From: an uncultured Enterobacterales bacterium
GTDB lineage: Bacteria > Myxococcota_A > UBA796 > CAJQPC01
NCBI GenBank assembly: GCA_964501915.1
Contig: CAZCVP010000034.1
Coordinates: 1-32,000, forward strand
Direction: 5' to 3'
Length of the DNA stretch: 32,000 nt
Made by a program: the position numbers and the translations under genes. Shown here in pieces: positions 1,311-32,000 of the stretch. Every line of letters begins with the position of its first letter. The stretch's first letter is position 1. The notes beneath the pieces were generated by a model. The model made no database searches and was not told the DNA's origin. It saw only the letters and a list, made by a program, of their open reading frames with translations.

Positions 1311-2801
1311 ATGACCACGCCACGCTCGACCGCCTACCTCGCCGGTGTTGTCCGCGAGCTCTGCAGGCTGCCCGGCGAGACGGTCTGGACCGAGTTCAAG
1401 GTCGACAACGCCGACCCACAGCTCATCGGCGAGTCCAGCTCCGCGCTGGCCAACGGCGCAGCCCTCCACGGCAAGACCCGCGGCTGGATGGTCTGGGGCG
1501 TTCGCGACGAAGACCACGAGATCGTCGGCACGGAGTTCCGGCCGGAAGCAGTGCGACGTGGCAACGAGGAGCTGGAGAACTGGCTCCTGCGCTTGCTCCG
1601 TCCGCGGATCGACTTCGGCTTCCATGAGGTCGACATGGACGGGGTGCGCGTGGTGCTCCTCGAGATCGACCGGGCAGCCGGGGCGCCGGTCGCCTTCAGT
1701 GGCATCGAGTACGTCCGGATCGGGAGCTACACCAAGAAGCTCAAGGACCACCCCGAGAAGGAACGGGAACTCTGGAGGACCTTCGACCGGGTGGCCTTCG
1801 AAGAGGGCGTGGCCCAGGAGCGCGCGAGCGCCGACGAGGTCCTGCACAAGCTGGACTACCCCGCCTACTTCCACCTGCTGGAGGTACCGCTTCCCGAGGG
1901 TCGCGCCGCCCTCCTGGAGGGCCTCCAGCGGGAGCGGGTGATCGTCCCCTGCCAGGCTGGCGGCTACGACATCACGAACCTGGGCGCCGTCCTGCTGGCA
2001 CGCCGGCTCGAGGACTTCCCGCGGCTGCGTCGCAAGGCCGTCCGGGTCATCCAGTACCGGGGCACGGGGCGCACCGACCCCCTCCGGGAACAGGTCGGCG
2101 GCAAGGGCTACGGCAACGGCTTCGAGGGTCTGGTCCGGTTCCTCGCCGGACTCCTGCCGAGCAACGAAGTCGTGGGCCAGGCGCTGCGCCGGGAGGTGCC
2201 GATGTTCCCACCGCTCGCCGTCCGCGAGCTGGTCGCCAATGCGTTGATCCACCAGGACTTCTCTGTCACGGGTGCCGGACCGATGGTCGAGCTGTTCCAG
2301 GACCGACTGGAGATCACGAATCCGGGCGAGCCGCTGGTGGACAAGGAGCGCTTCCTGGACTGCCCACCCACGTCTCGCAACGAGACCCTGGCCTCCCTGA
2401 TGAGGCGCTTCGGCATCTGCGAGGAACGAGGCAGTGGATTCGACAAGGTGGTCGCACAGGTCGAGATGTTCCAGCTCCCACCACCGCTCATCGAGGTGCC
2501 TCCAGGCTTCACGCGCGTGGTGCTCTTCGCGCCCCGCACGCTCGCCGAGATGGACAAGGACGAGCGGGTGCGCGCCTGCTACCTCCACGCCTGCCTGAAG
2601 TACGTCCAGCGCGACTTCCTGACCAACTCCTCCCTTCGGCAGCGCTTCGGGATTGAGCCCAAGAACCGCGCCATGGCCTCTCGGCTCATCCGGGACGCCA
2701 TCGATGTGGGTCAGCTCGCACCCTACGACCCTGGCGCGTCCCCGAGGTTCATGAAGTACGTGCCATGGTGGGCGACCTCGACGCGACGGGACACGCGGTG
2801 A
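1311..2801 (+). CDS. Schlafen/AlbA_2-domain + HATPase_c_4 ATP-binding protein (COG2865 type; often annotated as 'RecG-like putative transcriptional regulator').
   Basis: The N-terminus, GETVWTEFKV...SSALANGAALHGKTRGWMVWGVRDEDHEIVG, fits the AlbA_2/Schlafen-like fold signature. The central segment, LAVRELVANALIHQDFSVTGAGPMVELFQDRLEITNPGEPL, fits the HATPase_c_4 signature. The C-terminal region looks like a winged-helix domain. Third-position GC bias is good throughout. Confidence 0.85.
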   Translation: MTTPRSTAYLAGVVRELCRLPGETVWTEFKVDNADPQLIGESSSALANGAALHGKTRGWMVWGVRDEDHEIVGTEFRPEAVRRGNEELENWLLRLLRPRIDFGFHEVDMDGVRVVLLEIDRAAGAPVAFSGIEYVRIGSYTKKLKDHPEKERELWRTFDRVAFEEGVAQERASADEVLHKLDYPAYFHLLEVPLPEGRAALLEGLQRERVIVPCQAGGYDITNLGAVLLARRLEDFPRLRRKAVRVIQYRGTGRTDPLREQVGGKGYGNGFEGLVRFLAGLLPSNEVVGQALRREVPMFPPLAVRELVANALIHQDFSVTGAGPMVELFQDRLEITNPGEPLVDKERFLDCPPTSRNETLASLMRRFGICEERGSGFDKVVAQVEMFQLPPPLIEVPPGFTRVVLFAPRTLAEMDKDERVRACYLHACLKYVQRDFLTNSSLRQRFGIEPKNRAMASRLIRDAIDVGQLAPYDPGASPRFMKYVPWWATSTRRDTR

Positions 2802-2927
2802 GCGAGCATGTTGACGGCCACTTGACCGGGCCCCCACCCGGCCAGGCTCCGCGCATCCGCGATCGTATTGATTTCAAGTGCTTGCATCAGGCCACTCCAC
2901 TTGATGGGCACTTGACTGGAGGCCCTC

Positions 2928-4223
2928 GTGGCCTCCCCTGTTGACCCCACCCACCTCTTCGCCACCCTGGAGCGCTCCGGCGCCGGCCTGGCCCTGGACC
3001 ACAAGGACCTCTGCTTCCTCGTGGCGCTCTCGGTCCACGTCGAGGGTCAGGGCCTGGCCTCGGTCTCCGAAGAGGCCCTGCGGGACGTCTTCGAACGCAC
3101 CTGGCAGCACGTGGAGCCCGGCGCCCTCAGTGTGCGCAAGGCCGCGACGGAGAGGATCGAGAAGCTGCGCACCCAGCGCCTGCTGAACCGACTCGCCGCG
3201 AGCCGCTACGCCGCGGAGAGCGACTACGCGCTGTCCACCCTGGCGATGGCCATTGTGCGCTTCTTCCACGAGGACGAGCGGCTCACCCGCGAGTCCCTCG
3301 ACGTGCTGACCCGCACCCTGGAGGCCGAGCTGGTCAAGGCGCTGCAGGCGCTCCGAGAGGTGTCGCCCGAGGAGGTGGGCGCCAGAGTGCTCCAGCCGAT
3401 GCGCGTCAGCGTGAGCACGCTGCTCGGTGGCATCGCGAACCGACAGCAGGGCCTCGACCGGCAGCAGGAGGAGCTGCGGGACGAGGTCACCGAGCGGCTC
3501 GGCGGCACGAGCGAGTCCGCCATGGAGGCCTGCGCCACCCTGCTGGAGAGCATGACGAGCACTCTGAAGGAGCTGACCCAGGTGTTGATGCGCGACTGCG
3601 CTCGGCTGCAGGAGGTCGTGGAACAGATCGCCCAGACCGCGCGGGCGCTGGACCGGGACGACGTGACCACCGCAGCGGCCGACGTGGCCGACAAGCTCCA
3701 CCGGGTGGAGGGCTGGGGCCAGAGCCGACTGGACACCTGGACCGAGTACCACGAGCACGTCCACCGCCACATCCGCATGGTCGTGAGCCTGGACCCCAAC
3801 CGCGCCCTGAGCCACGGGCTGCGGGACCTGATGCGCGACGGCCCCCGGTGGTCGCTCGTGGTGTGCGCCCCCGAGCGCTGGCGAGGGCTCCGTGAGGTGG
3901 ACCAACGGCGCCCCCCGGTGCGGGTCCGCCGAGAGCTGCGGGAGCGCGAGGAGCTGCCCGAGGAGGAGGCACCGCCCGTGGAAGGTCGCGTCGAGCAGGC
4001 CGTCAGGGCGGCACTGGCCGTGGGGCCGACCACCTACGTTCAGCTCGCGCGAGCGCTGCTGCCGGAGACCCCGGAGGGGGGCAGGCAGCGCATGCTCGGC
4101 GAGCTGGCCCGCCAGCTCTCCACCCAGGGCGTGGTGGCGCGACCCCGGACCCGGGACTGGCACCCGATCGGAGCCCTGGAGGTGAACGACTGGCTCGTGC
4201 ACCCGCCCGGGGAGAGCCCATGA
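2928..4223 (+). CDS. jetA: MukF-like kleisin subunit (JetA/MksF) of a Wadjet/MksBEFG-type SMC complex.
   Basis: The gene has a GTG start with GGAGG 5 nt upstream (2918-2922). At 431 aa it is close to MukF in size. The segments TQRLLNRL and LHRVEGWGQSRLDTWTEYHEHVHRHIRMVVSLDPNR parallel the E. coli MukF segments RQRLLNRF and [36 protein letters not shown], as I recall them. An acidic/basic linker (RELREREELPEEEAPP) precedes a C-terminal winged-helix-like end. Confidence 0.9.
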   Translation: MASPVDPTHLFATLERSGAGLALDHKDLCFLVALSVHVEGQGLASVSEEALRDVFERTWQHVEPGALSVRKAATERIEKLRTQRLLNRLAASRYAAESDYALSTLAMAIVRFFHEDERLTRESLDVLTRTLEAELVKALQALREVSPEEVGARVLQPMRVSVSTLLGGIANRQQGLDRQQEELRDEVTERLGGTSESAMEACATLLESMTSTLKELTQVLMRDCARLQEVVEQIAQTARALDRDDVTTAAADVADKLHRVEGWGQSRLDTWTEYHEHVHRHIRMVVSLDPNRALSHGLRDLMRDGPRWSLVVCAPERWRGLREVDQRRPPVRVRRELREREELPEEEAPPVEGRVEQAVRAALAVGPTTYVQLARALLPETPEGGRQRMLGELARQLSTQGVVARPRTRDWHPIGALEVNDWLVHPPGESP

Positions 4224-4888
4224 GCGAGCGCTACCGGAGCCTGGGTGACGTCATCGCGGACGAGCGCTTCCCCGCCGTCGACCTGGCGCTGCGCCGCGGA
4301 CGCCACATCGGCCTCGACGACCTGGAGGACTTCGCCTTCCTCCAAGAGACACGCCACCTGCTGCGGGAGTTCTACGACGGCTACGGCTGGCAGCTCGAGT
4401 TCGCGGACGAGGGCCTGTTCTTCCTGATCCCGCTGAACGACAGCCTCGGCCGGGCACAGCTCAGCGACAACGCCATGCTCGTGGGACAGGCCTGCCTGCT
4501 GCTGCACCTCGATCGGGCGAGCACGCGGGACGCCGGCTGGGTGACGCGGGCGCAGGTCCTGGAGCACCTCGGCGCCGTGCTCGGCGAAGAGGAGCTGGGC
4601 GTGCGCCTGACCGGCTCCAAGCGGCGCCGCGAGACGCGACGCATCGACCTGGTCCACCAGCGCCTCGGCGGGGCGCTGAGGGAGCTGCACCGCCTCGGCT
4701 TCGTGGTGGTCAAGGGCGAGCGGGTGCAGCTACGGCAGGCGCTGGTGCGCTTCGCGGATCCGGTGCGCGGCGACGGCGACTGGCGGCGACGTCTCGAAGA
4801 CCTGGTGTTCCGCGGCTACGTCGTCGTGCCGGGGGAGACCGCGCTCGACGAGGAGCAGGACGACGCCTGGACGAAGGGCGAGGAGTGA
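4220..4888 (+). CDS. jetB: MukE-like subunit (JetB/MksE).
   Basis: An ATGA start/stop overlap couples it to the upstream gene. FPAVDLALRRGRHIGLDDLEDFAFLQETRHLLREFYDGYGWQLEFADEGLFFLIP parallels E. coli MukE [55 protein letters not shown], as I recall it. The C-terminus is acidic. Confidence 0.9.
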   Translation: MSERYRSLGDVIADERFPAVDLALRRGRHIGLDDLEDFAFLQETRHLLREFYDGYGWQLEFADEGLFFLIPLNDSLGRAQLSDNAMLVGQACLLLHLDRASTRDAGWVTRAQVLEHLGAVLGEEELGVRLTGSKRRRETRRIDLVHQRLGGALRELHRLGFVVVKGERVQLRQALVRFADPVRGDGDWRRRLEDLVFRGYVVVPGETALDEEQDDAWTKGEE

Positions 4889-7800
4889 AGCGAGCCCGCG
4901 CGACCCGCCTGGCCCTCGTGAACTGGAAGGGGCTGGTCTACGAGGAGGTAGAGCTTGACCCCGGCGTCACCGCGCTGGAGGGAGAGAACGGCGCCGGGAA
5001 GACCACGGTGATGATCGCCGCCTACACCGTGCTGCTGCCCGATCTCAGCCACCTGCGCTTCACCAACGTCGGCGAGACCGGGAGCACGGGAGGCGACGCC
5101 GGCATCTACGGTCGGCTGGGCCACGCCGGACCGGCGTACGCGTGGCTCGACCTGCAGCTCGACCGCAAGCGGGTGGTGGCGGGTGTGCTCCTGGATCGCA
5201 AGGCGCGGCCTCGCCTGGAGGTCTCACCGTACCTGTTGGACGACGTTCCCTTCGAGGTACCCCTGGAGACCCTGGTGATGCGACGCCACGGAGGCCAGGT
5301 CGAGGTTCCCGAGGCCCCGGACATCCCGAACCTGGCCCTGGCGGCCGGGGCGCGGCCAAGGTCCTTCGGCAAGGACAAGAAGGCCTACTTCAGCGCCCTG
5401 TTCGAGCTGGGCATCACCCCGCTGAGGATGGCCTCCTCGGAGGAGCGCAAGAAGCTGGACGACATGCTGCGAACCTGCATGATGGGCGGGATCTCCAACG
5501 TCCTGCGCACGGGACTGCGGGACTTCCTGTTCGCGGAGAACACCCGGCTTGCGGACACCGTGAAGCGCATGGAGCACAACCTGGCCCTGTGCCGGGACAC
5601 GCGAGCCAGGGTGAGGCGCAGCGAGGAGCTCCGGCGGGAGATCGGGGAGCTCTACGAGAAGGGCGAGTCGACCTTCCTCTACGCCGCCCACGGTGTCGCG
5701 GTCTGGGAGCGGGAGGCGCGGGAGAGGCTACGGGAGCTGGAGTCGGCGCAGACCGCGCTCCAGGACCAGGTGGACCGGGTCGGCGGCGAGCTGGCGCAGA
5801 CCGAGCGGCGCCTCGCCGAGGGGGCGAGCGAGCAGGAGGCCCTCGGGGAACGCCTTGACGTGGCGAACCTGCGGGTCCAGCAGGTGGAGCGGGCGCTGGA
5901 GCTGCTGGACCGGGCGCGGGCGAAGGGGCGGGAGGTAGAGCGCCTGGGGGAGACCTGGCGGGCTGCCCAGGGGGAGCTGGACACAGCCACGGCGGGGCTG
6001 CGGATCTCGGAGGGGGCCGAACAGCGGGCTCGCGAGGAGGCGACGACCGCCGCGGAGAACCTCTCCAGCCACCAGGACGCCTACCAGGAGCTCTCCCGCC
6101 GCGTGGGTCTGCATCGGGCGGCTGTGGAGCGGCTGGAGCGCGCACGGACAGTTCTGGGCCTCCCTGCCCTCCCCGAGGGAGAGCTCCAGATCCGCCTCGA
6201 GTCCACTCGCCGAGAGGAAGCCCGGCTGCGAGACCGGTTCCGGGAGATCGAGCTGCGCGTGGAAGACGCCGAGGAACACGCCGGGCGCCACGCCAACGGC
6301 CTGGCCACCCTGTCCCGGCTTCTGCGTCGCGAAGCCGAAGTGACGGACCTGCCCACCGCCTGGGAGCTGCGGGACAAGCTCCGCCAGGCCAGCACTCAGC
6401 TTCCTCGCCTGGAAGAAGAGGCGACGAGCGCCGCCCGGACCGCAGGCGAACAACGGCGGGCACGGGAGCGAGCGGCAGCGCTCGGTGTCCCCGACGGTCC
6501 GCATCTGAGCGCAACGCTCCAGGGTCTGGAGGCCACTGAGCAGGAGCTCGACGCTCGGCTCGGCCTCGACCTCGTGAAGCAGGCCGAGACCCGAGTCGAG
6601 CAGGCGCGACTGGACCAGGAACTGGCCCGAACCCGGGCAGCGCTGCCCGCGTGGCTGAGAGCGCGGGATCTCCTGGATCGGTTGGCCGAGCGCTGGGGTC
6701 CGTTCGACAGCAGCGAAGGCCTCGCAAGCGGCCACTCCGAGCTCAAGCGAACCCTCGCCGCCCACCAGGAGACTCTGGCCGAGCGACGTGCGGATGTGGC
6801 CGCTCTCACCGAGCGCATCCGAGGCCTGGAGCTCCAGGCCGACCACCCGGAGCACGTGCTGCGTGCCAGAGACGCGGTCGACGCCGAGATCGTGGCCGAG
6901 CACTTCGACGAGGTCGCGCTCGAGCGGGCCGCCACGGTCCAGGCGTGGCTCGGCCAGCGGGCCCACGCGCTGCTGGTCGACAACCCCCGCCAGGCCGCCT
7001 TGAGACTGTCGACGGCCGGCATCCTGGGCCAGGGAGACGAGGTGCTGCTGGTCCGGGGCCTACCGAGTCTCCCCGAGGCACTGTCGACCACAGATACCGG
7101 TGGCGTGGTGGTCACGGACGGACAGGTGACTCGACTCGCCCAGCCGCCGGAGATCCCGGTCCTGGGGCGGGCGGCGCGGGCTCGCGCCCTGGCCGCTCTT
7201 CAGCGGGACCTCGCGAGGGCCGAGGCGGCCGAAGAGACCCAGGCGGCGGAGGTCGATCGGCTCACGGCCGATCTCTCCATGATCGAACAGGCCCTGCCGC
7301 TGGCTCCGTCACTCGACGAGCCCGATCCCCGTCCCCAGATCGACCGACTGGCGCTGGAGCTCTCGGAGCTGGGCCTCCGATCGGCGGACATCAGCGCCGC
7401 GCTCGAAGGCCACAGCAGCAACCTCGACGAGGTGCGCCTCAGGCTGCGGAGGCTACGGGAGCTGTTGCCGACCCTGTCGCTGCTCGATCCTCCCGACTAC
7501 ACCGCCCTGGCCCGCGCGGTGCAGGCGCGACACGGCATTGCCCTCACCGACGCCAAGCGCTGGGAGTCCAGCCAGGCGGACTGGCGGCTCCTGGCCGACC
7601 ACCGGGATGACCTGCGCAGACCCCCCATCGACGAGGAACAGGCGCGGTCCCTTCGAGATGAGCTGGACGCCGTCTCTACCCAGCGGAAGCGCCTGAGGGA
7701 CGCCACCGAGGCCCTCGGTGAGCTGTGCCGAGATCCTGCACCGCTGGGCTGGGGCGACTCTGAGGCGATCCTGGTGGAGCGTGCTGCCCTCACCCCGAAG

Positions 7801-9219
7801 CTGAAGGCCTCCAGCGACCGAGCGAGGGAGGCCCTGGCCGAAGCGGTCACAGCGATGGCGGACGCTCGCCAGGAGCGGGACAACGCCCAGGAGCGGAGAG
7901 ACCAGGCGAAGGTGAGGCACGATCTTGCCGCTGGCGAGTCCGCCCAGCTCCAAGAGCAGCTCGAAGAGACTGGACTGCCTCTGCCCAGACCATCCCTGCT
8001 GACAGAGGCCCGCGCCACCCGGGAAGACCTCCGAGCGCAGCGGGAGACGCTGGCCAGGACCCTGGCGATACTCCAGGAGGCGAAGGGCGGCCTCAAGCGA
8101 GATCTGGACCGAGCCCAGAACGACCTGCGCCAGACCACAGAGAGAGTCGCAGGTGCCCAGCTCGAGCACCGCAACCGCAGGACCACCTGGGAGACCTTCG
8201 CGGAGTCCGCGGCGTCGGCCGGGCTTCAGCTCGACCCACTGCTGCGCCGCCCCGTCCAGGTCGAGGGCAGCCCCAACCTGTTCAGCGAGGCCAAGGCCCG
8301 CTGTGCCGCGATCACCGCGCTGCTGCGGCACACGGAGTCCAACGAGCTGCTCGGGCTGTATGAGGGCATCGGCGACGGCACCCGCGTCGAGCACGTCCGC
8401 GCCTGGTCGGCCCTGCGAGCCGAGCTGCACCGGCGGATCCCGCCGGACATCAGCGAGGCCCCCGACGTGGTCGGCCGCCTGGACGACCTGGGACGCCGTC
8501 TGCACCGCTTGCGACGCACCCTCAAGGAGCGCGAGCGGGACCTTCGCACCGACGCTCGCCACATCGGAACCACCATCCAGAGCCAGCGACGACGCGCCTA
8601 CAGCCTCGTGCGAAGCCTGGCGAAGTCCCTCGAAGCCGTCCGCTTCGGGACGATCACGCGCATCACCCTGAGCCACGAGCCCATCCGCAAGATGGACGAG
8701 CTCCTGGACGCGCTGTCGGGACAGGTGGACCTGTTCAGCCAGCCGCGGCCGGTCGAGGAGGTCATGGTGGAGCTGTTCGAGAGCATCGGTGGCGGCCGGG
8801 TCAGGGCAGCTCGCCTGCTGGACTACCGCCAGTACTTCCGCGTGCGAGTCGATGCGGTGCGGGACGACGGCAGCCACGTCGGCGCCCGCGGGGACCAGAT
8901 GTCCACCGGCGAGGCCATCGGCATCGGGGCGTCCGTGATGATGGTGGTGCTCCAGGCCTGGGAGCAGCACAGCGCCAAGCTGCGGAAGAAGCGGCAGCAC
9001 GGCACGATGCGCCTGCTCTTCCTGGACGAGGCGACACGGCTGAGTCCCAAGTCGCTGCTGGTGCTCTTCGACCTCTGCAGCAAGCTGGACCTCCAGCTCC
9101 TGATCGCCGCGCCCGAGGTCGCCCGGGTCGCTGGCGGGACCACGTACACGCTCGTTCGTCACAAGGACCGGGTGGACTTCCACGGCCGGAGGGTGGTGAG
9201 GCATGGCCTGGGAGAGTGA
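4885..9219 (+). CDS. jetC: MukB-like SMC ATPase (JetC/MksB), 1444 aa.
   Basis: A GTGA overlap couples it to jetB. The N-terminal head reads LVNWKGLVYEEVELDPGVTALEGENGAGKTTVMIAAYTVLLPDLSHLRFTN (Walker A at aa 33-41, MukB_N-like). Long Arg/Glu/Leu/Ala coiled-coil arms follow. A hinge-like block sits at ~6850-7200 and ends in PVLGRAARARALAAL (compare MukB PLFGRAARESRIESL). The C-terminal head carries MSTGEAIGIG (signature motif), RLLFLDEATRL (Walker B), LLIAAPE and GTTYTLVR. Confidence 0.95.
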   Translation: MKRARATRLALVNWKGLVYEEVELDPGVTALEGENGAGKTTVMIAAYTVLLPDLSHLRFTNVGETGSTGGDAGIYGRLGHAGPAYAWLDLQLDRKRVVAGVLLDRKARPRLEVSPYLLDDVPFEVPLETLVMRRHGGQVEVPEAPDIPNLALAAGARPRSFGKDKKAYFSALFELGITPLRMASSEERKKLDDMLRTCMMGGISNVLRTGLRDFLFAENTRLADTVKRMEHNLALCRDTRARVRRSEELRREIGELYEKGESTFLYAAHGVAVWEREARERLRELESAQTALQDQVDRVGGELAQTERRLAEGASEQEALGERLDVANLRVQQVERALELLDRARAKGREVERLGETWRAAQGELDTATAGLRISEGAEQRAREEATTAAENLSSHQDAYQELSRRVGLHRAAVERLERARTVLGLPALPEGELQIRLESTRREEARLRDRFREIELRVEDAEEHAGRHANGLATLSRLLRREAEVTDLPTAWELRDKLRQASTQLPRLEEEATSAARTAGEQRRARERAAALGVPDGPHLSATLQGLEATEQELDARLGLDLVKQAETRVEQARLDQELARTRAALPAWLRARDLLDRLAERWGPFDSSEGLASGHSELKRTLAAHQETLAERRADVAALTERIRGLELQADHPEHVLRARDAVDAEIVAEHFDEVALERAATVQAWLGQRAHALLVDNPRQAALRLSTAGILGQGDEVLLVRGLPSLPEALSTTDTGGVVVTDGQVTRLAQPPEIPVLGRAARARALAALQRDLARAEAAEETQAAEVDRLTADLSMIEQALPLAPSLDEPDPRPQIDRLALELSELGLRSADISAALEGHSSNLDEVRLRLRRLRELLPTLSLLDPPDYTALARAVQARHGIALTDAKRWESSQADWRLLADHRDDLRRPPIDEEQARSLRDELDAVSTQRKRLRDATEALGELCRDPAPLGWGDSEAILVERAALTPKLKASSDRAREALAEAVTAMADARQERDNAQERRDQAKVRHDLAAGESAQLQEQLEETGLPLPRPSLLTEARATREDLRAQRETLARTLAILQEAKGGLKRDLDRAQNDLRQTTERVAGAQLEHRNRRTTWETFAESAASAGLQLDPLLRRPVQVEGSPNLFSEAKARCAAITALLRHTESNELLGLYEGIGDGTRVEHVRAWSALRAELHRRIPPDISEAPDVVGRLDDLGRRLHRLRRTLKERERDLRTDARHIGTTIQSQRRRAYSLVRSLAKSLEAVRFGTITRITLSHEPIRKMDELLDALSGQVDLFSQPRPVEEVMVELFESIGGGRVRAARLLDYRQYFRVRVDAVRDDGSHVGARGDQMSTGEAIGIGASVMMVVLQAWEQHSAKLRKKRQHGTMRLLFLDEATRLSPKSLLVLFDLCSKLDLQLLIAAPEVARVAGGTTYTLVRHKDRVDFHGRRVVRHGLGE

Positions 9220-10189
9220 GTCCGACCGGGCGCTGCTCCTGGAGCTCCGCCTGACCGGCGCCGCACGACGGCGGACAGCCCAGCAGAGCCTGCTGGAGAT
9301 GCTGGAGAGGCAGGGCTGGGTGGTGTCCACCCCGCGGGCCGACGAGGTCGAGCTGGTCGCCGAGCGCGTCGTGGAGCTGGATCGCATGCTCGATGGCCGG
9401 TGGAAGGGTTGGCGGGCGGTCGCTCACGCGCTGCTGGCACGCGAGCTCCCTCCGACCGTGCGCGGTCTCAAGGAGCTGAGGCGTCTGGAGCGGGAGCCAC
9501 CGCCGATCCCCGCTCGGGTGAGCCTGAAGACCGCGACCTCACAGGTCGCTGAGCACAGCAAGGCCAGCTTGCATCGAGGCCACCTGGAGATGCTCGGAGG
9601 AGCTGAGGTGGTCCGGGACGGCACGGTGCTGATGAGGCCGCACGCCGGGACGAAGCTCCGGAGGGGCAGTGACCTGGTGGATGCCTCTCAGCTCGTGGCC
9701 CTCCAGGGCATCGTCGCCTTGACCCAGAGGGCGCTGCTGGACGGGACTCGCGTGGTGGGCCCCAGGCCGGGGGCGGTCATGACCGTCGAGAACGAGTCCG
9801 CCTTCGTCGACCTGCCGAAGCCCGACGGCCTGCTGTTGGTGTGGATTCCGGGCTGGAACACGCACCTCGCGGTGGAGCTGCTCCGCTCGCTGCCCGAGGG
9901 ACGCCGACTCCACTTCGGGGACCTGGACGTCAACGGGGTCAGGATCTATCGGCACCTGCGCGAGAGGCTGCCGGACCTGGAGCACTTCGTGCCCGAGTGG
10001 TGGGCCGAGGTGGCGGCAGAGGCGCCTCCGTGGCCGGTGGAGTGGCCGGAGGGGCTGGTCAGGGCGAACGATCCTCAGCTCCTTCGCGACCTGGCGGCCA
10101 AGGGCCTGGGGTCCGAGCAGGAGGTCGTGGTGCTGGACGGGCGGATGGTGGGGGAGCTCGAGCAGGCCGTCGGACCCGGTCCTCTCTGA
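9203..10189 (+). CDS. jetD: JetD/MksG-like Toprim (DUF2220-type) nuclease subunit, 328 aa.
   Basis: The ATG at 9203 overlaps the jetC stop (9217-9219) by 17 nt. Toprim-type acidic motifs are present: AVMTVENESAFVDL (E196) and RLHFGDLDVNGVRIYRHL (D240, D242). A late EQEVVVLD segment is also present. Confidence 0.8.
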   Translation: MAWESESDRALLLELRLTGAARRRTAQQSLLEMLERQGWVVSTPRADEVELVAERVVELDRMLDGRWKGWRAVAHALLARELPPTVRGLKELRRLEREPPPIPARVSLKTATSQVAEHSKASLHRGHLEMLGGAEVVRDGTVLMRPHAGTKLRRGSDLVDASQLVALQGIVALTQRALLDGTRVVGPRPGAVMTVENESAFVDLPKPDGLLLVWIPGWNTHLAVELLRSLPEGRRLHFGDLDVNGVRIYRHLRERLPDLEHFVPEWWAEVAAEAPPWPVEWPEGLVRANDPQLLRDLAAKGLGSEQEVVVLDGRMVGELEQAVGPGPL

Positions 10190-19756: not shown

Positions 19757-19971
19757 CACGTTGGGCGGTGCCAGCGGCGTCTGTGGCACCCCAGGCGCGC
19801 ACAGAACGGGTTGGCGCCGTGCCAACGGCGTCTGTGGCACCCCAGGCGCGCGCAGATCGGGTTGGCGCCGTGCCAACGGCGTCTGTGGCACCCCAGGCGC
19901 GCACAGAACGGGTTGGCGCCGTGCCAGCGGCGTCTGTGGCACCCCAGGCGCGCACAGAACGGGTTGGCGCA
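19757..19971. repeat. Tandem array of four 51-bp units, with unit starts at 19768, 19819, 19870 and 19921, plus a degenerate partial copy at 19757-19767.
   Basis: The unit is gtgccaGcggcgtctgtggcaccccaggcgcgcacagaacgggttggcgcc. Units 1 and 4 are identical apart from the final base (unit 4 diverges from the consensus at 19971). Unit 3 differs at 1 position and unit 2 at 3 positions. Each unit contains the dyad GTGCCA-N10-TGGCAC. The array lies in the 464-bp gap between the stop of the 20008..21399(-) gene and the start of the kinase gene (19543, -). Confidence 0.9.
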
Positions 19972-20007: not shown

Positions 20008-21399
20008 CTACCGGGCGCCCTCGGGCCCGCCGTAGACCCCCATGTCGCTCCGAGAGCCGTCGGGATCGCTCCACTCCGGGACTCCGGCGTCGATGGCCGG
20101 GCTGCCGGCCACCAGGTGGAGGTCCGAAGCGGAGGGATCGTCGTGGTTCAGGTCCTCGAAGCCGGGCTCGGCCTCCAGGCTACCCTCGGCCTCGAGCACC
20201 ACGAGGTCCTCGGGCGGCCGATCGGGGCCGCAGCCGTCGTGCACGAGCCGCCGGCAGTCCTCGCAGGTCGCCCCCCAGGAGAGGTTGTGGCTGACCTCAA
20301 GGTCCTGGACCAGCGCCAGCGCGATGTCGAGGTCGTAGAAGACGTTGTTGCGCAGGCTCAGCAGGCCGGTGGTCTTCTGACCGCAGACTGGCTCCTGCTC
20401 GATGCGGATGGAGCCCCCGAGCAGCACGTTGTTGTGCAGCGACACCTCCACGTCCTCGGGCAGCGAGCCGCTGTCGCTGACCAGGAGCGAACCGGCGCTC
20501 CACAGCAGGCTGTTGCGGATGGCCAGCTCGGCACCGTCGGAGTCCCGGAGATCCACCAGGGCGTCGGGACCGCTGAGGATGGCTCGCACGATCTCCACCT
20601 CGACCCCCGCGTCCAGCAGGCTCGAAGCGATCACCACGCCGCCCAGCTCGATGTCCTCCACACTGACGTAGGTGGTGCCCCCGGTGCCGCCCCTCACGGT
20701 CAGCACCCCGTCGAGCACCGTCTGGCTCAGGTACACGTCCACCCGATCCCGACCCTCGGTCTCGGGGCGCACGTCGACGGAGGACAGGACGCTGCCCGAG
20801 ATGTCGGTCGCCGCGGTCAGCACGAGCGAGCCGCTCCCGGCCACCACGTCCACGAGCACGCCGTGGCCCTCCATCTCCAGCTTGTCCGCGGCCGTCACCG
20901 CCACCAGCTCGACCTCTTCGAAGGCCCGCACGGTCCCGGCCTCGACCGACTCCGCTCGACTGTCCCGCACCGTGAAGCGCTCGGAGACGACCGCCACGAC
21001 CTCGGACTGGCGGGCGCTCACCTTGCCCTCCACCACCACGTCGCGCAGCACCGAGTTCCTCAGCGACATCTCGCCGTCCAGGACCAGGATCGGCGGGTCG
21101 GCGGGGTCCTCCCCCCGCATCAGGGTGTCGTTCTTGAGGTGCAGATCCCCCACGACCTCGTAGGTGCCGGGGGCCAGGATGATCTCGATGCCCGTCTCCC
21201 GCGCGGCCTGCTTGACGAGGTAGCCGAGGTTGGCGCACTCGCCGGGCACCTCGACCCGAAGGTCGAAGAAGGCCCCCGCACAGGCATCGGGCGTGATCCC
21301 GGTGGTGTCCTCCCCCGTGCAGCCGACCAGCAGCCCCACCAGCAGGCCGGGCATCACGAGCTCCCCGAAGTCTCGACCGCGCCCAATCATCCTGTTCAT
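20008..21399 (-). CDS. Right-handed parallel beta-helix repeat lipoprotein.
   Basis: The signal/lipobox is MNRMIGRGRDFGELVMPGLLVGLLVGC. The body has repetitive beta-helix-style segments (N/S/V/L-rich 20-25-aa rungs such as LRNSVLRDVVVEG and IRNSLLWSAGSLLVS). The C-terminal DPDGSRSDMGVYGGPEGA is typical of this class. Confidence 0.75.
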   Translation of the reverse strand: MNRMIGRGRDFGELVMPGLLVGLLVGCTGEDTTGITPDACAGAFFDLRVEVPGECANLGYLVKQAARETGIEIILAPGTYEVVGDLHLKNDTLMRGEDPADPPILVLDGEMSLRNSVLRDVVVEGKVSARQSEVVAVVSERFTVRDSRAESVEAGTVRAFEEVELVAVTAADKLEMEGHGVLVDVVAGSGSLVLTAATDISGSVLSSVDVRPETEGRDRVDVYLSQTVLDGVLTVRGGTGGTTYVSVEDIELGGVVIASSLLDAGVEVEIVRAILSGPDALVDLRDSDGAELAIRNSLLWSAGSLLVSDSGSLPEDVEVSLHNNVLLGGSIRIEQEPVCGQKTTGLLSLRNNVFYDLDIALALVQDLEVSHNLSWGATCEDCRRLVHDGCGPDRPPEDLVVLEAEGSLEAEPGFEDLNHDDPSASDLHLVAGSPAIDAGVPEWSDPDGSRSDMGVYGGPEGAR

Positions 21400-28558: not shown

Positions 28559-28571
28559 GGGGCACCTCGAG

Positions 28572-28594
28572 TAGGGCAGGACCAGTGTGCCCTA
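28572..28594. repeat. Perfect 7-bp inverted repeat, TAGGGCA-N9-TGCCCTA, in the tlpA-like/lipoprotein intergenic gap.
   Basis: The repeat is read directly from the sequence. It lies 39 nt downstream of the TlpA-like stop and just upstream of the GAGG-GTG start region of the 26525..28558(-) gene. No U-tract follows, so its role as terminator or operator is undetermined. Confidence 0.5.
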
Positions 28595-28632
28595 ACCGAC
28601 CGTCGCTGCGCAGCTTCAGGCTGTGATGGAGG

Positions 28633-29169
28633 TCACCCGAACCACCAGGCGAGCAGGCGGAGCTGCCAGCCCATCAACAGGCCCGCGTGGGCGTAGGCCA
28701 CCCGCCCCTCCGGATCGACGAGCACCGTCGTGGGCACGATGTCGACGCCGTAGGCCGAACGGGTCGCCCGGTCGGCGTAGAGCACCGGGTAGGTGAAGCC
28801 GAGCTGCTCCACCGCGGCCGGCACGCCCTCGGGCCGGTCGTCGGTCGCCAGGCCCAGGACCACGACCTCGGGGTGGTCGTCGGCGAAGGCGCTGAAGGCC
28901 GGCACCTCCATGCGGCAGGGACCGCACCAGGTGGCCCAGAAGTTGAGCACCACCAGCGAGCCGCGGTGCTGCTCCAGGGAGACGGCGGCGCCTGCGAGGT
29001 CCGGCAGGGCGAAGGCGGGGGCCTGCTCGGGCAGCGACGGCGCCCGCAAGGTGCCCAGGCCGGTGAAGATCACCAGGGCGAGGAAGAGACTGAGCAGGAC
29101 CGACCGCAGGGTGCGCCAGCGCTCGCCGGACTTCGGCTCGCCGAGCAGGGTGTCGAGGTCGTCGGGCAT
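28633..29169 (-). CDS. Membrane-anchored TlpA/ResA-like thioredoxin-fold thiol:disulfide oxidoreductase.
   Basis: The N-terminal transmembrane anchor is LRSVLLSLFLALVIFTGLGTL. The active site is VVLNFWATWCGPCRMEVP (a CxxC motif). Confidence 0.85.
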   Translation of the reverse strand: MPDDLDTLLGEPKSGERWRTLRSVLLSLFLALVIFTGLGTLRAPSLPEQAPAFALPDLAGAAVSLEQHRGSLVVLNFWATWCGPCRMEVPAFSAFADDHPEVVVLGLATDDRPEGVPAAVEQLGFTYPVLYADRATRSAYGVDIVPTTVLVDPEGRVAYAHAGLLMGWQLRLLAWWFG

Positions 29170-29214
29170 CGGGGGGTCATAGCCTGCGCGGCTCCAGGTC
29201 CCCGCTCCACCCTC

Positions 29215-29649
29215 TCAAGCCAGGAGAGGATTCCGGCAACGGAGTCCACCGAAGCGGGAGAAGTCCCGGTCCGCGGTCAACAGCTCGGTGACACCGTGCT
29301 GGAGGCAGAGGGCGGCGATCCGGGCGTCGTGGACCCGCGGCCCCACGATGGAGCCGCTGACCACCAGCTCAGCCAGCCTGTCGAGGTGCCTGGGGCCCTC
29401 ACCGACGAGGACGAGCAGCGGAGACGCCGTCCACGAGCGACAACAGGCCAGGGCCGTCTCCACCTCCGTGGGCGGTCGCCAGATCCTGGGGTGGGTCACC
29501 ACCGCGAGGAACTCGTGCACGCAGGGCCAGGGAATGCACCAACGCCTGTCCCCTTCGACCAGGGCCGAGAGACAGTCGAGCGCAGCACCGTGGAAGGGGC
29601 TGTCGGAGCGGTGGGCGTGGACGAGGAGGTTGGTGTCGACCCCGATCAC
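29215..29649 (-). CDS. vapC: PIN-domain ribonuclease toxin, VapC-type.
   Basis: The N-terminus is MIGVDTNLLVHAH. The later PIN acidic residues are HDARIAALCLQHGVTELLTADRDFSRF. The GTG start overlaps the antitoxin stop (GTGA at 29646-29649). Confidence 0.9.
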   Translation of the reverse strand: MIGVDTNLLVHAHRSDSPFHGAALDCLSALVEGDRRWCIPWPCVHEFLAVVTHPRIWRPPTEVETALACCRSWTASPLLVLVGEGPRHLDRLAELVVSGSIVGPRVHDARIAALCLQHGVTELLTADRDFSRFGGLRCRNPLLA

Positions 29650-29888
29650 GACCCCCGACCCTCGTAGATGGTCTCGCTGAGCCGGGACCAGTCCCCGGCT
29701 GCGAATTCGGGGGAGAGCCCCTCTCCGTCGACGATGACAGGCTCGAAGCGCACGGCGGGAGGGGACTCGGCCTGCAGTGCGAGACGCAGCCCCCGCTCGA
29801 CGAGCTCCTTCAGAGTGATGGAGCGGGCGCGGGCGACCTCCCGTGCTTCGTCCAGCAGGGCGTCGGCGATGTCGAGGGTGGTCTTCAT
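29646..29888 (-). CDS. vapB: VapB-type antitoxin, 80 aa.
   Basis: MKTTLDIADALLDEAREVARARSITLKELVERGLRLAL is the common MxTTLDIDDxLL antitoxin N-terminus. I place the start at ATG 29888. The track's longer 142-aa version adds a Gly/Pro/Arg-rich extension that I do not believe. Confidence 0.8.
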   Translation of the reverse strand: MKTTLDIADALLDEAREVARARSITLKELVERGLRLALQAESPPAVRFEPVIVDGEGLSPEFAAGDWSRLSETIYEGRGS

Positions 29889-29925
29889 GTTGCTAGCAAT
29901 ATCATAGCAACCCATAGCCCCATAG
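29889..29925 (-). promoter_or_regulatory. AT-rich dyad and direct-repeat patch abutting the vapB start codon. Candidate vapBC promoter/operator, possibly giving a short-leader or leaderless transcript.
   Basis: GTTGCTA-N9-TAGCAAC (29889-29911) is a perfect 7-bp inverted repeat. CATAGC/CATAG occurs three times (29903, 29913, 29921). The patch is the most AT-rich stretch in the neighbourhood and sits directly 5' of the ATG at 29888 on the minus strand. No Shine-Dalgarno sequence is visible. Confidence 0.35.
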
Positions 29926-30159
29926 AGAAGGGGGTTCCCGCCCCTGGACCGGCTCGGGCCGGAGGCATCGTCTGCATGGTCCCGGAGCGGCTCCTCACCA
30001 GACGCCGGCCCGCTGACGAACATGGGCTCCTCCTGGAGGCGACGCCGTCCATGCGGCGGCTCCGGAGGACCCATGCACGCCCGGTGCCCGGGGGGCGCCA
30101 GGCAGCACGAGCTGTCCTTGCAGCCATTTGTGTCGATCAGGACAGCCGCCCTGTCACCC

Positions 30160-30352
30160 CCTGGCGGCAGAGGTCGCCCGTGGACAAAGGTCGCCCAGGA
30201 TGGTCTATCTTCGCCGACCTTTGTCCGATTTCGGGCTCCAGGCGGACGAAGGTCGCCCAGGATGGTCCATCTTCACCGACCTTTGTCCGATTTCGCGTTC
30301 CAGGCGGACGAAGGTCGCCCAGGATGGTCCATCTTCGCCGACCTTCGTCCGC
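30160..30352. repeat. Tandem array of a 62-bp unit: three full hairpin-forming copies plus a partial leading copy.
   Basis: The hairpins lie at 30182-30226, 30244-30288 and 30306-30350, exactly 62 bp apart. Each has a 12-bp stem, GGAC(A/G)AAGGTCG ... CGACCTT(T/C)GTCC, around a 21-nt loop, CCCAGGATGGTC(C/T)ATCTTC(G/A)C. The loop contains the inner dyad GATGG-T-CCATC. A partial copy, ctggcggcagaggtcgccc, sits at 30161-30179. The 62-bp period is not a multiple of 3, and the three copies fall in different frames. Confidence 0.9.
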
Positions 30353-30494
30353 GGGGTCCGCGCGGCGGTCTGGGAGCCTCCCCCCGCTCCGCGCCGCGTG
30401 GACGAGCCCCTGGGCGACGACCCCCCTGCGGATCAGCCCGCCTCGGACCGCTCCATGCCCAGCCGCGCCATGAGCTCGTAGAGAGCCGAGCGGT

Positions 30495-30749
30495 TCATGC
30501 GGACAGCGCCAGCATCCGATGAAGGGCGGCCGCATCGGGCGGCGTGATCCGATCGACCACGCAGGGTACGGTCTCCAGGGCCGCCTCCCGAGCCTCGCGG
30601 ACACCGTCGGGGTCCATGGCCCCGAAGGCGGCCTCGCCCCGGTTGGCGTGATCGAGGAAGTCGACGATGGTGACCGGCTCCTCACAGGCGGCGGCGGCGG
30701 GCGAACCGAGGGCCAGCAGCCCGAGCAACGACATCAGCGCGATCCTCAC
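30495..30749 (-). CDS. Small secreted hypothetical protein (84 aa), possibly C-terminally truncated.
   Basis: The signal peptide is MRIALMSLLGLLALGSPAAAAC. Third-position GC bias is good. The start lies 3 nt after the upstream protease stop. The ORF ends abruptly (..HRMLALSA*) just before the repeat-bearing non-coding region. Confidence 0.55.
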   Translation of the reverse strand: MRIALMSLLGLLALGSPAAAACEEPVTIVDFLDHANRGEAAFGAMDPDGVREAREAALETVPCVVDRITPPDAAALHRMLALSA

Positions 30750-30752
30750 GAC

Positions 30753-32000
30753 CTACTCCACCACCACCCAGACCCCATCCACCAGCCGCAGCTCCCGCGT
30801 CGGCCAGTAGTCCAGGTCCGCCTTGAGCGTGAGCACCCGGACCACGCCGTCCAGGTCCTCGGTCATGATGCGCACGGCCTCCCCGTTTCCGACCTCCGCC
30901 ACCGCGTCGAGGAAGGCCCCGAGGTCCGGAGTCGGCCGACCGTCGACCTCGACGATGCGGCGGGTGGCCCGCAGGCCGTAGCGGGAGGCCGGGGAGCCGT
31001 ACCAGTACCAGGCCACGTAGACGCCGCCGGTGACGTCGCCCCGCTGGGCGGCGACCTCCGGGTGCGGGTCGTGAAGGAAGGCACCACCCCAGATCGCCGC
31101 CCGCTCCACACCCTGCCGGGCCACGGGCCGGGTCTCGACCTCGATGGACTGCACCTCGCCCTCGCGGAAGACCGACAGGGTCAGGCGTGGGGCCTGGCTG
31201 GCCCGCTCCAGCTCCAGGAAGCGGGTGGCCGGGACCCCGTCGATCGCCAGCAACAGGTCGCCGCCCTGGAGCACCTGGGCGGCGTGGGTGCCCCCGTAGA
31301 GCCGGGAGATGGACAGCACCTGCTTGCGCTCGGGGTCGTGGGCCTCCAGGACCTCGGCCCACTCCTGGGACAGCCCCAGCTCCCGCGCATCCGCCATCGC
31401 CACCAGGCGCAGCTCGGCGCCGAGGATGCGGGTCTCGGTGGCGGTGCTGCCCGGGTAGGGCGCCGGGAGCTGCTCGAAGACCTCCACCGGCAGACCCCGG
31501 AACCGGGACTTGGCGGTGCCCCCCTCGTCCCGGTGGAAGCTCGCCCAGATCGCCAGCACGTTGCCCTTCTTGTCGGCGAGCACGCCGCCGACACTGGAGA
31601 CGCTGTCCTCCACCCGCACGACCTCCAGGTTGACGTCGCGGTGCTGCGGGGGACTGGGCAGCGGGAGCAGGATGGGGTCGATGCGGGACACCCGCGTCTG
31701 GCGGCTGACGACGCGGTGCTGGCCGGTGAGGGCGACGAGCCACACGTCATCGCCCGGCTCCAGGGGCTCCGGGAGGAGCCGCGCCGAGGTGACCGGGGTG
31801 TCGCCGAGCAGCGCCGGATCGTAGGAGATCATCGCCACGTTGTGCTCCGGGTGGACGAACACGACCTGACCAGGGATCCGCACCGAGCCCCCGACGGTCA
31901 GGGTGAGATCCCCCATCCCGATGGGCACGGTGTCCCGGTCCGCCAGCACGAGGCCCCGCTCGGCGTCGACCACCAGCCCTGCACCTCGGAAGGTCGCACC
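30753..32000 (-). CDS. C-terminal ~415 aa of a trypsin-like serine protease with PDZ domains (HtrA/Nma111-like). The N-terminus lies outside the window.
   Basis: The reading frame stays open to the window edge (..GATFRGAGLVVDAERG..). It contains a protease-fold-like segment, VSSVGGVLADKKGNVLAIWASF, and PDZ-type segments, VLQGGDLLLAIDGVPATRF and GLRATRRIVEVDGRPTPDLGAFLDAV. Confidence 0.7.
   Translation of the reverse strand, partial: GATFRGAGLVVDAERGLVLADRDTVPIGMGDLTLTVGGSVRIPGQVVFVHPEHNVAMISYDPALLGDTPVTSARLLPEPLEPGDDVWLVALTGQHRVVSRQTRVSRIDPILLPLPSPPQHRDVNLEVVRVEDSVSSVGGVLADKKGNVLAIWASFHRDEGGTAKSRFRGLPVEVFEQLPAPYPGSTATETRILGAELRLVAMADARELGLSQEWAEVLEAHDPERKQVLSISRLYGGTHAAQVLQGGDLLLAIDGVPATRFLELERASQAPRLTLSVFREGEVQSIEVETRPVARQGVERAAIWGGAFLHDPHPEVAAQRGDVTGGVYVAWYWYGSPASRYGLRATRRIVEVDGRPTPDLGAFLDAVAEVGNGEAVRIMTEDLDGVVRVLTLKADLDYWPTRELRLVDGVWVVVE

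Follow-up and report, generated by a model that had tools for sequence, protein, structure and literature searches.

A young tandem triplication of a palindromic hairpin unit in a variable segment upstream of vapBC

Three long, hairpin-forming units repeated head to tail lie in the intergenic region upstream of a vapBC toxin–antitoxin operon. Such an array raises a simple question: is it a structured element maintained by selection, a local cluster of a dispersed repeat family, or the trace of a duplication? The DNA analysed here, called the window, makes up the first 32 kb of a scaffold assembled from a metagenome, and the same locus is carried by contigs of 58–100 kb from ENA and JGI. The initial annotation of the window proposed that base pairing, rather than primary sequence, is selected in the units. 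We find that the array is a young, orphan, non-coding tandem triplication with a partial edge copy, situated in a lineage-specific variable segment, and we examine below which function, if any, it could have.

Tandem Repeats Finder returned an array at 30182–30351 with a period of 62, 2.7 copies, 93% matches and a score of 298. Repeat finding placed the starts of the units at 30182, 30244 and 30306, all in direct orientation and spaced by exactly 62 bp. When as many as 3 mismatches were tolerated, the 45-nt consensus matched nothing in the window but the three array sites, and 100 shuffles produced no match. These three approaches confirm the 62-bp-spaced hairpin copies that had first been described. 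The half-unit reported ahead of the array, lacking its right arm, was also recovered, through a 92% match and by direct reading from 30160. The units are as follows.

30160–30179, no strand assigned: truncated unit, more diverged; a linker end joined to the initial ~15 nt of the left arm, containing one indel and lacking the right arm.
30182–30243, no strand assigned: unit 1; core 30182–30226, linker 30227–30243; pair 5/41 is A-T and inner pair 21/25 is G.T.
30244–30305, no strand assigned: unit 2; core 30244–30288, linker 30289–30305; pair 5/41 is G.T on the + strand and pair 14/32 is a C-A mismatch.
30306–30350, no strand assigned: unit 3; core only, the most perfect copy; pair 5/41 is G-C.

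Each unit is composed of a 45-nt near-palindromic core followed by a 17-nt linker, unit 3 being devoid of the latter. The dyad of the core is centred at T23. Its 12 outer pairs are separated by an internal loop from a 6-pair inner stem, GGATGG/CCATCT, which is closed by a 3-nt apical loop, and the ends of the unit read GGACRAAGG...CCTTYGTCC. Two C-C mismatches (13/33 and 15/31) and a G.T at inner-stem pair 17/29 are kept in all three cores, these positions being identical among the copies. In unit 3 the stem gains two extra pairs and extends over 30304–30352. Identity between copies is 92–98%, and the two linkers are identical to each other at 15 of 17 positions. For the truncated unit, repeat finding aligned 30168–30179, CAGAGGTCGCCC, with 30185–30196, CAAAGGTCGCCC (92%); on direct reading, CCTGGCGG-CAGAGGTCGCCC aligns with CCAGGCGGACGAAGGTCGCCC, and the similarity reaches 30160. 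The cores are the longest palindromes of the 32-kb window, and the G+C content of the array is 61% as compared to 71–78% in its flanks.

All genes flanking the array are on the minus strand. The array thus lies between two co-directional transcription units, 143 nt past the stop of a 79-aa gene and ~290 nt before the vapB start. Along the minus strand, the order is the S1C/PDZ protease gene (stop at 30753), the 79-aa lipoprotein gene (30734–30495), a hairpin (30403–30356), units 3, 2 and 1 and the truncated unit. Then come a spacer of ~250 nt, a palindrome (29913–29892), vapB, vapC, a TlpA-like thioredoxin gene and a MopE/FG-GAP gene. The features next to the array are the following.

29215–29649, minus strand: vapC (PIN-domain) toxin gene (PF01850, E 5.4e-11).
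29646–29891, minus strand: vapB antitoxin gene (PF09957, E 1.9e-5, residues 2–36 of an 81-aa form).
29892–29913, no strand assigned: AT-rich palindrome GCTAGCAATATCATAGCAACCC, directly upstream of the vapB start codon and separate from the array.
30356–30403, no strand assigned: G+C-rich hairpin separate from the array; 12-nt arms that are 92% complementary, with a nested inner stem; −33.1 (+) and −31.3 (−) kcal/mol.
30495–30734, minus strand: gene for a predicted secreted protein or lipoprotein of 79 aa, from gene calls; GC3 0.85; the array is in its 3′ flank.

The Pfam matches to vapB and to the PIN domain of vapC agree with the vapBC module first recognized beside the array. An AT-richer patch had also been pointed out. 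It exists (GC 0.47 versus 0.71 in the flanks) and corresponds to the palindrome at 29892–29913, which lies apart from the array and probably serves as the vapBC promoter/operator; homologues of vapB carry a different palindrome, TATGGGTACCCATA, at the equivalent position. Some gene callers lengthen vapB to 125 aa (29646–30074), over this palindrome. This longer start is probably wrong, because in the 81-aa form the Pfam VapB domain already starts at residue 2. The small gene that had been described as ending abruptly is instead an intact gene for a 79-aa predicted lipoprotein, identical on 16 contigs. Its product has no Pfam family; a signal peptide and a lipobox (LALGSPAAAAC) can be read directly from the sequence. 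The G+C-rich hairpin at 30356–30403 is placed between the stop of this gene and the array.

The predicted RNA folding energies of units 1, 2 and 3 are −23.8, −24.1 and −27.2 kcal/mol on the + strand and −24.8, −21.1 and −28.7 kcal/mol on the − strand, and favour neither strand. For the 271-nt region as a whole, folding compared with shuffles gave z = −8.4 (+) and −7.7 (−). The array was first read as non-coding, and this is borne out. Its codon-position GC is flat (0.56–0.66) in each of the six frames, as against a GC3 of 0.85–0.97 and a GC2 of ~0.5 in neighbouring genes. None of the public assemblies of the locus has a gene called across it, and translations of both strands of the repeat found no match, in any frame, in 5.8 billion protein clusters. 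A coding repeat was considered and rejected. No promoter-like site was detected on either strand in 29600–30800. A terminator scan of both strands gave no site coinciding with the units or with the 30356–30403 hairpin; the bases after the unit stems are GATTTCG (+) and GCCTGGA (−), and no T-run is present behind any hairpin.

We then considered the variation between copies, from which selection on pairing had been proposed. Sixteen of the 19 pairs are invariant across the three copies. Pair 5/41 reads A-T, G.T and G-C in units 1, 2 and 3, exactly the series that had been claimed. Pair 21/25 is either G.T or G-C, a one-sided change, and pair 14/32 is broken in copy 2. In a column-shuffle control, the observed covariation was reached in 344 of 500 shuffles, meaning that the pattern is the usual outcome once both columns vary. 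Under a null model of four random transitions on 45 nt in three copies, two of the four variable sites are partners with P ~0.12, and two Watson-Crick types are obtained at one pair with P ~0.04. The latter value, for a feature chosen post hoc and for one event in three young paralogous copies, is suggestive at best, and the covariation test on three copies is not significant. Substitutions between copies 1 and 2 amount to 3/45 in the hairpin and 2/17 in the linker, a density in the hairpin that is not lower than in the linker.

Quasi-palindromes are hotspots of template-switch mutation, in which one arm is copied onto the other and the palindrome is perfected (PMC7202029). Template switching can therefore produce ‘compensatory’ changes without selection. 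The 5/41 series is most simply explained by two transitions within a quasi-palindrome, which template switching inside the hairpin may have coupled, and is not good evidence for a selected RNA structure. The proposal that pairing rather than sequence is selected is thus not supported: it concerns a single pair in near-identical copies, the shuffles reproduce it, another pair is broken, and no strand is preferred.

Further copies of the unit were searched for at several levels. Over ~45 kb of the same genome, nhmmer found no second copy. We also derived a covariance model, R1, from the three cores and applied it, without filters, to the window and to related loci. In the ~45 kb of the same genome and the loci of relatives it detected the array alone, with scores at the array sites of 76–79 bits on the + strand versus 41–49 bits on the − strand; a 22-bit match in another contig (L038) was rejected as a chance Asp-rich coding stretch. 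The exact 19-mer AAGGTCGCCCAGGATGGTC gave 9 matches in GTDB genomes and 14 in JGI metagenome contigs, all of them single chance matches without hairpin context. The JGI scan is incomplete: contig Ga0115649_1000661 (L040) carries the array and contains the query 19-mer three times, yet it is absent from the scan output, and these negatives accordingly carry little weight. A 17-mer gave five single matches in IMG/VR, and blastn in distant mode against plasmids and phages gave none. Over the whole window, Rfam gave no match at the gathering threshold; in E-value mode, only generic miRNA-precursor hairpin look-alikes were returned (13–28 bits versus thresholds of 55–85). From ~45 kb of the same genome and incomplete public scans, the unit appears to be locus-specific.

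The surroundings of the array had been suspected to be a rearranged spot, and comparison with relatives supports this. The best named relatives of the S1C/PDZ protease are found in Myxococcota MAGs (55–59% identity), and the closest others are 70–74% identical. A frame composed of the protease ... MopE – NTP-transferase – PP2C is conserved in relatives, with a variable interval between protease and MopE. In the source genome, this interval (28559–30752) contains the lipoprotein gene, the array, vapBC and the thioredoxin gene, without dksA. In two relatives (L028 and L053), it contains a dksA/traR-type gene alone; in others, ccdAB and dksA (L029) or three other genes and dksA (L030). A 107-aa reverse-strand ORF of unassigned family, cut by the contig end, occupies it in L054, and other genes are present in L031, whose contig stops inside the interval. 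Gene content between protease and MopE thus differs in every relative examined. The interval is a gene-turnover hotspot in the clade, and different toxin–antitoxin modules share this slot among lineages.

Neither the unit nor a long-period tandem array was found in the six orthologous loci of relatives (protease 70–74% identical). Conservation at the orthologous locus was therefore rejected, the six relatives having a different gene content and no unit. The two closest vapC homologues (73% and 71% identical) are in unrelated contexts, with vapB starting 2–50 nt past the preceding gene; no array was found next to them. Since this leaves no room for an array upstream, we also rejected the possibility that the array is part of the vapBC module.

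All seven assemblies that span the array have three copies of identical sequence, apparently from one near-clonal population. This fixed copy number fits either a constrained element or merely a clonal population. Three short-read contigs (L004, L043 and L047) break inside the array, as expected for a repeat. Five SNPs among assemblies were found in the 620-nt intergenic region, all at 29939–30066, between the array and the vapB promoter; there is none in the array and none in the 30356–30403 hairpin, counts too small for testing. The assemblies also differ in the protease, which is divided into two ORFs (607 + 330 aa) in the scaffold of the window, scaffold_1200, with a break at ~31746 (L002 7903–7905), and forms one 925-aa gene in scaffold_545 and in the JGI contig. 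The split corresponds either to a frameshift/stop variant in the population or to an assembly error.

Elsewhere in the window, a second and unrelated tandem array occupies 19760–19970 (51-bp unit × 4.2, 95% matches, TRF score 380). This array separates a minus-strand 448-aa gene, ending at 20008, from a Ser/Thr kinase gene starting at ~19534. Each of its units contains two short hairpins, with folding z of −2.3/−2.9, modestly better than shuffles. Two assemblies carry it with identical sequence, and the loci of relatives lack it. The window also carries a complete Wadjet/Mks-type anti-plasmid operon, on the + strand at 1311–10189, composed of the following genes.

1311–2801, plus strand: gene for a SLFN_AlbA_2/HATPase_c_4 protein, ahead of the Jet genes.
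2928–4223, plus strand: JetA (MukF-like).
4220–4888, plus strand: JetB (MukE/MksE).
4885–9219, plus strand: JetC (MukB-like).
9203–10189, plus strand: JetD.

Which known family of elements does the array resemble? With REP/BIME clusters such as E. coli REP325, it has in common imperfect palindromes that form stable hairpins in an intergenic location, downstream of an ORF and between co-directional genes; the placement described for REPs, downstream of an ORF and between unidirectional genes, is therefore found here. REPs proper are palindromes of 20–40 bp with a stem of ~8–9 bp, a loop of 4–5 nt and a GTAG/CGTC tag (PMC3733652), whereas the core here measures 45 nt, with 12+6-bp stems and a 3-nt apical loop. 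No tag abuts the cores, whose boundaries (marked by a slash) read ...AGGC/GGAC and GTCC/GATT on the + strand and AATC/GGAC and GTCC/GCCT on the − strand. CGTC occurs only within the paired stem of copy 3, overlapping the variable position. REPs are dispersed in tens to hundreds of copies, are linked to a RAYT and usually alternate in orientation in BIMEs; the array, in contrast, is known at a single locus, and no RAYT (TnpA_REP) gene was found among the called genes and Pfam matches of ~45 kb. The three units have the same orientation and a single type of linker, which is not the organization of a BIME.

Other families were considered in the same way, mostly by reading the sequence itself. A MITE does not describe the array, the whole 45-nt core being the inverted repeat and no direct duplication flanking the units or the array. 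Neither does a CRISPR: the linkers are nearly identical and no cas genes are present in the window. Integron attC sites have the consensus ends RYYYAAC ... GTTRRRY, different from the GGAC- and GTCC-bounded ends of the unit, and no integrase is encoded in the region. A retron ncRNA was rejected, as the Pfam matches of the scanned genes include no reverse transcriptase. Intrinsic (Rho-independent) terminators share with the array a stable, G+C-containing hairpin downstream of a gene. They differ from it in that the stem-loop of the array is far longer, triplicated and without a U-tract; no U-run follows the units or the 30356–30403 hairpin, and an intrinsic terminator was thus not retained.

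A head-to-tail 62-bp unit at one locus has the form of a VNTR/minisatellite. The copy-number variation of VNTRs is not observed, although the seven assemblies, from a near-clonal population, constitute a weak test. Formally, minisatellite is the only family definition that applies to the array, and a REP-cluster-like action would be ascribed to it at most by analogy. Intergenic minisatellites such as the mycobacterial MIRU also have head-to-tail units of 40–100 bp, between co-directional genes, a period not divisible by 3 and a partial edge copy; here, two unrelated arrays (62 bp and 51 bp) are found within 11 kb. MIRUs form one sequence family at ~40 loci, and their copy number varies between strains. 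In contrast, the present unit is known at one locus, is found in three copies wherever the array was spanned (7/7) and is dominated by a long palindrome. The intergenic tandem repeats of Borgs (PMC9879509) share with it array-specific units, recent formation, flanking partial repeats regarded as seeds, unit lengths mostly not divisible by three and, for some, predicted hairpins. Borg repeats are however perfect, A-rich, very dense and variable in copy number, whereas the array is imperfect (93%), has 61% G+C and is chromosomal, bacterial and stable in copy number.

Taken together, we tentatively read the array, with less than even confidence, as a locus-specific tandem triplication of a hairpin unit which, if functional, would act as a REP/BIME-like insulator/stabiliser. 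That the copies are young follows from their 92–98% identity. They would have arisen by recent replication slippage or unequal exchange inside a variable segment of the chromosome of an uncultured marine Myxococcota-like bacterium. The seed of slippage may have been the short direct repeat AGGTCGCCC, surviving as the truncated edge copy. Flanking partial repeats are indeed regarded as seeds of tandem-repeat formation by slippage (PMC9879509). REPs together with flanking DNA are often tandemly reiterated, and most REPs lie downstream of ORFs, where the neighbouring genes are unidirectional or convergent (PMC3733652). Read-through RNA from the protease–lipoprotein genes would fold first into the hairpin at 30403–30356 and then into three hairpins of −21 to −29 kcal/mol. 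Such a four-hairpin stack could attenuate transcription into the autoregulated vapBC operon; it could also block 3′-to-5′ exonucleases and in this way stabilise the upstream mRNA. A precedent is the multi-REP element REP325 of E. coli, which lies between tandem genes and both terminates transcription and stabilises mRNA (bioRxiv 10.64898/2026.03.23.713779). As no T-run is found behind the hairpins, any termination would be U-tract-independent or factor-dependent. We infer this terminator/stabiliser function by analogy, and the array may have no function at all.

A neutral minisatellite is nearly as likely as the REP/BIME-like role. A hairpin-bearing intergenic stretch would have been triplicated by slippage and would persist, functionless, as it is young and harmless, which we hold to be possible but on the unlikely side. 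The unit is an orphan, with no homologue in any search; its copies are near-identical and the hairpin is conserved no more than the linker. The unrelated 51-bp × 4.2 array in another gap 10 kb away suggests that this genome generates arrays, and both arrays are absent from relatives. Long stable palindromes in bacterial DNA are usually unstable or counter-selected; three of them nevertheless persist here unchanged in all samples. Any read-through RNA must moreover fold into the hairpins, so that an effect on transcript fate is hard to avoid. An unlikely alternative is that the array is a local cluster of a dispersed family of REP/REPIN- or MITE-like type, which a transposase may have mobilised and whose other copies would lie elsewhere in the genome. 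The shape and location of the units agree with such a family: the palindrome is imperfect and occupies an intergenic gap behind an ORF, with the genes on both sides in one direction. REP clusters that grew by reiterating the palindrome and its flanking DNA in tandem are also on record (PMC3733652). The three contigs that break in the array and the public DNA scans, based on an exact 19-mer and demonstrably incomplete, also leave room for it. However, in ~45 kb of the same genome the covariance model run without filters found neither a solo nor a diverged copy, and the ORFs scanned there include no RAYT or transposase. The units lack an unpaired GTAG/CGTC tag, their stem and loop sizes are unlike those of tagged REPs (PMC3733652), all are in direct orientation, target-site duplications are lacking, and the 5.8 billion protein clusters gave no match in any frame.

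Two other readings give the dyad a direct molecular role. The three 45-bp dyads could form an array of DNA sites for a dimeric or tetrameric regulator or for a nucleoid, partition or recombination protein. Their regular 62-bp spacing, close to six helical turns, would put them on the same face of the helix. The dyad symmetry, the asymmetric positions conserved within it (13/33, 15/31 and 17/29), the absence of strand bias in folding and the location in a variable, TA-bearing segment are consistent with such sites. We nonetheless consider them very improbable: asymmetry that is conserved among such young copies is uninformative, and vapB is the only linked DNA-binding gene, its operator being expected at its own promoter (29892–29913). 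In addition, vapBC homologues are found without the array, no replication, partition or recombinase gene is nearby, and direct reading shows no attC consensus ends. Slightly less probable still is an independent structured small RNA, or multimeric hairpin RNA, with pairing under selection. The folds are very stable, pair 5/41 would be A-U, G.U and G-C and pair 21/25 G.U or G-C, and on the + strand G.U accounts for three of the four imperfect-pair states. Against this, the covariation is not significant (344/500 shuffles; P ~0.04) and pair 14/32 is broken by one change. No promoter-like site lies on either strand in 29600–30800, no U-tract terminator is present and no Rfam family matches; per-unit energies show no strand preference, and no homologue was found in which conservation of the structure could be followed. 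Finally, it would be a long shot to see in the array the first member of a lineage-specific class of tandem hairpins in marine Myxococcota, its dyad being constrained as an RNA 3′-UTR module or as a protein site marking junctions of acquired cassettes and its 5/41 series reflecting selected pairing.

What is new at this locus is an intergenic palindromic tandem repeat without a family match, of a kind that is itself already known. It carries a caution: a lone compensatory-looking pair in three young tandem copies of a quasi-palindrome cannot be taken as evidence that an RNA structure is under selection. If the stack does insulate vapBC, it would represent a REP/BIME-like terminator-stabiliser that arose de novo by local duplication, without a transposase. 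To our knowledge, no such elements have been described in the phylum, and the finding would then bear on the way in which bacteria acquire 3′-UTR regulatory structure.
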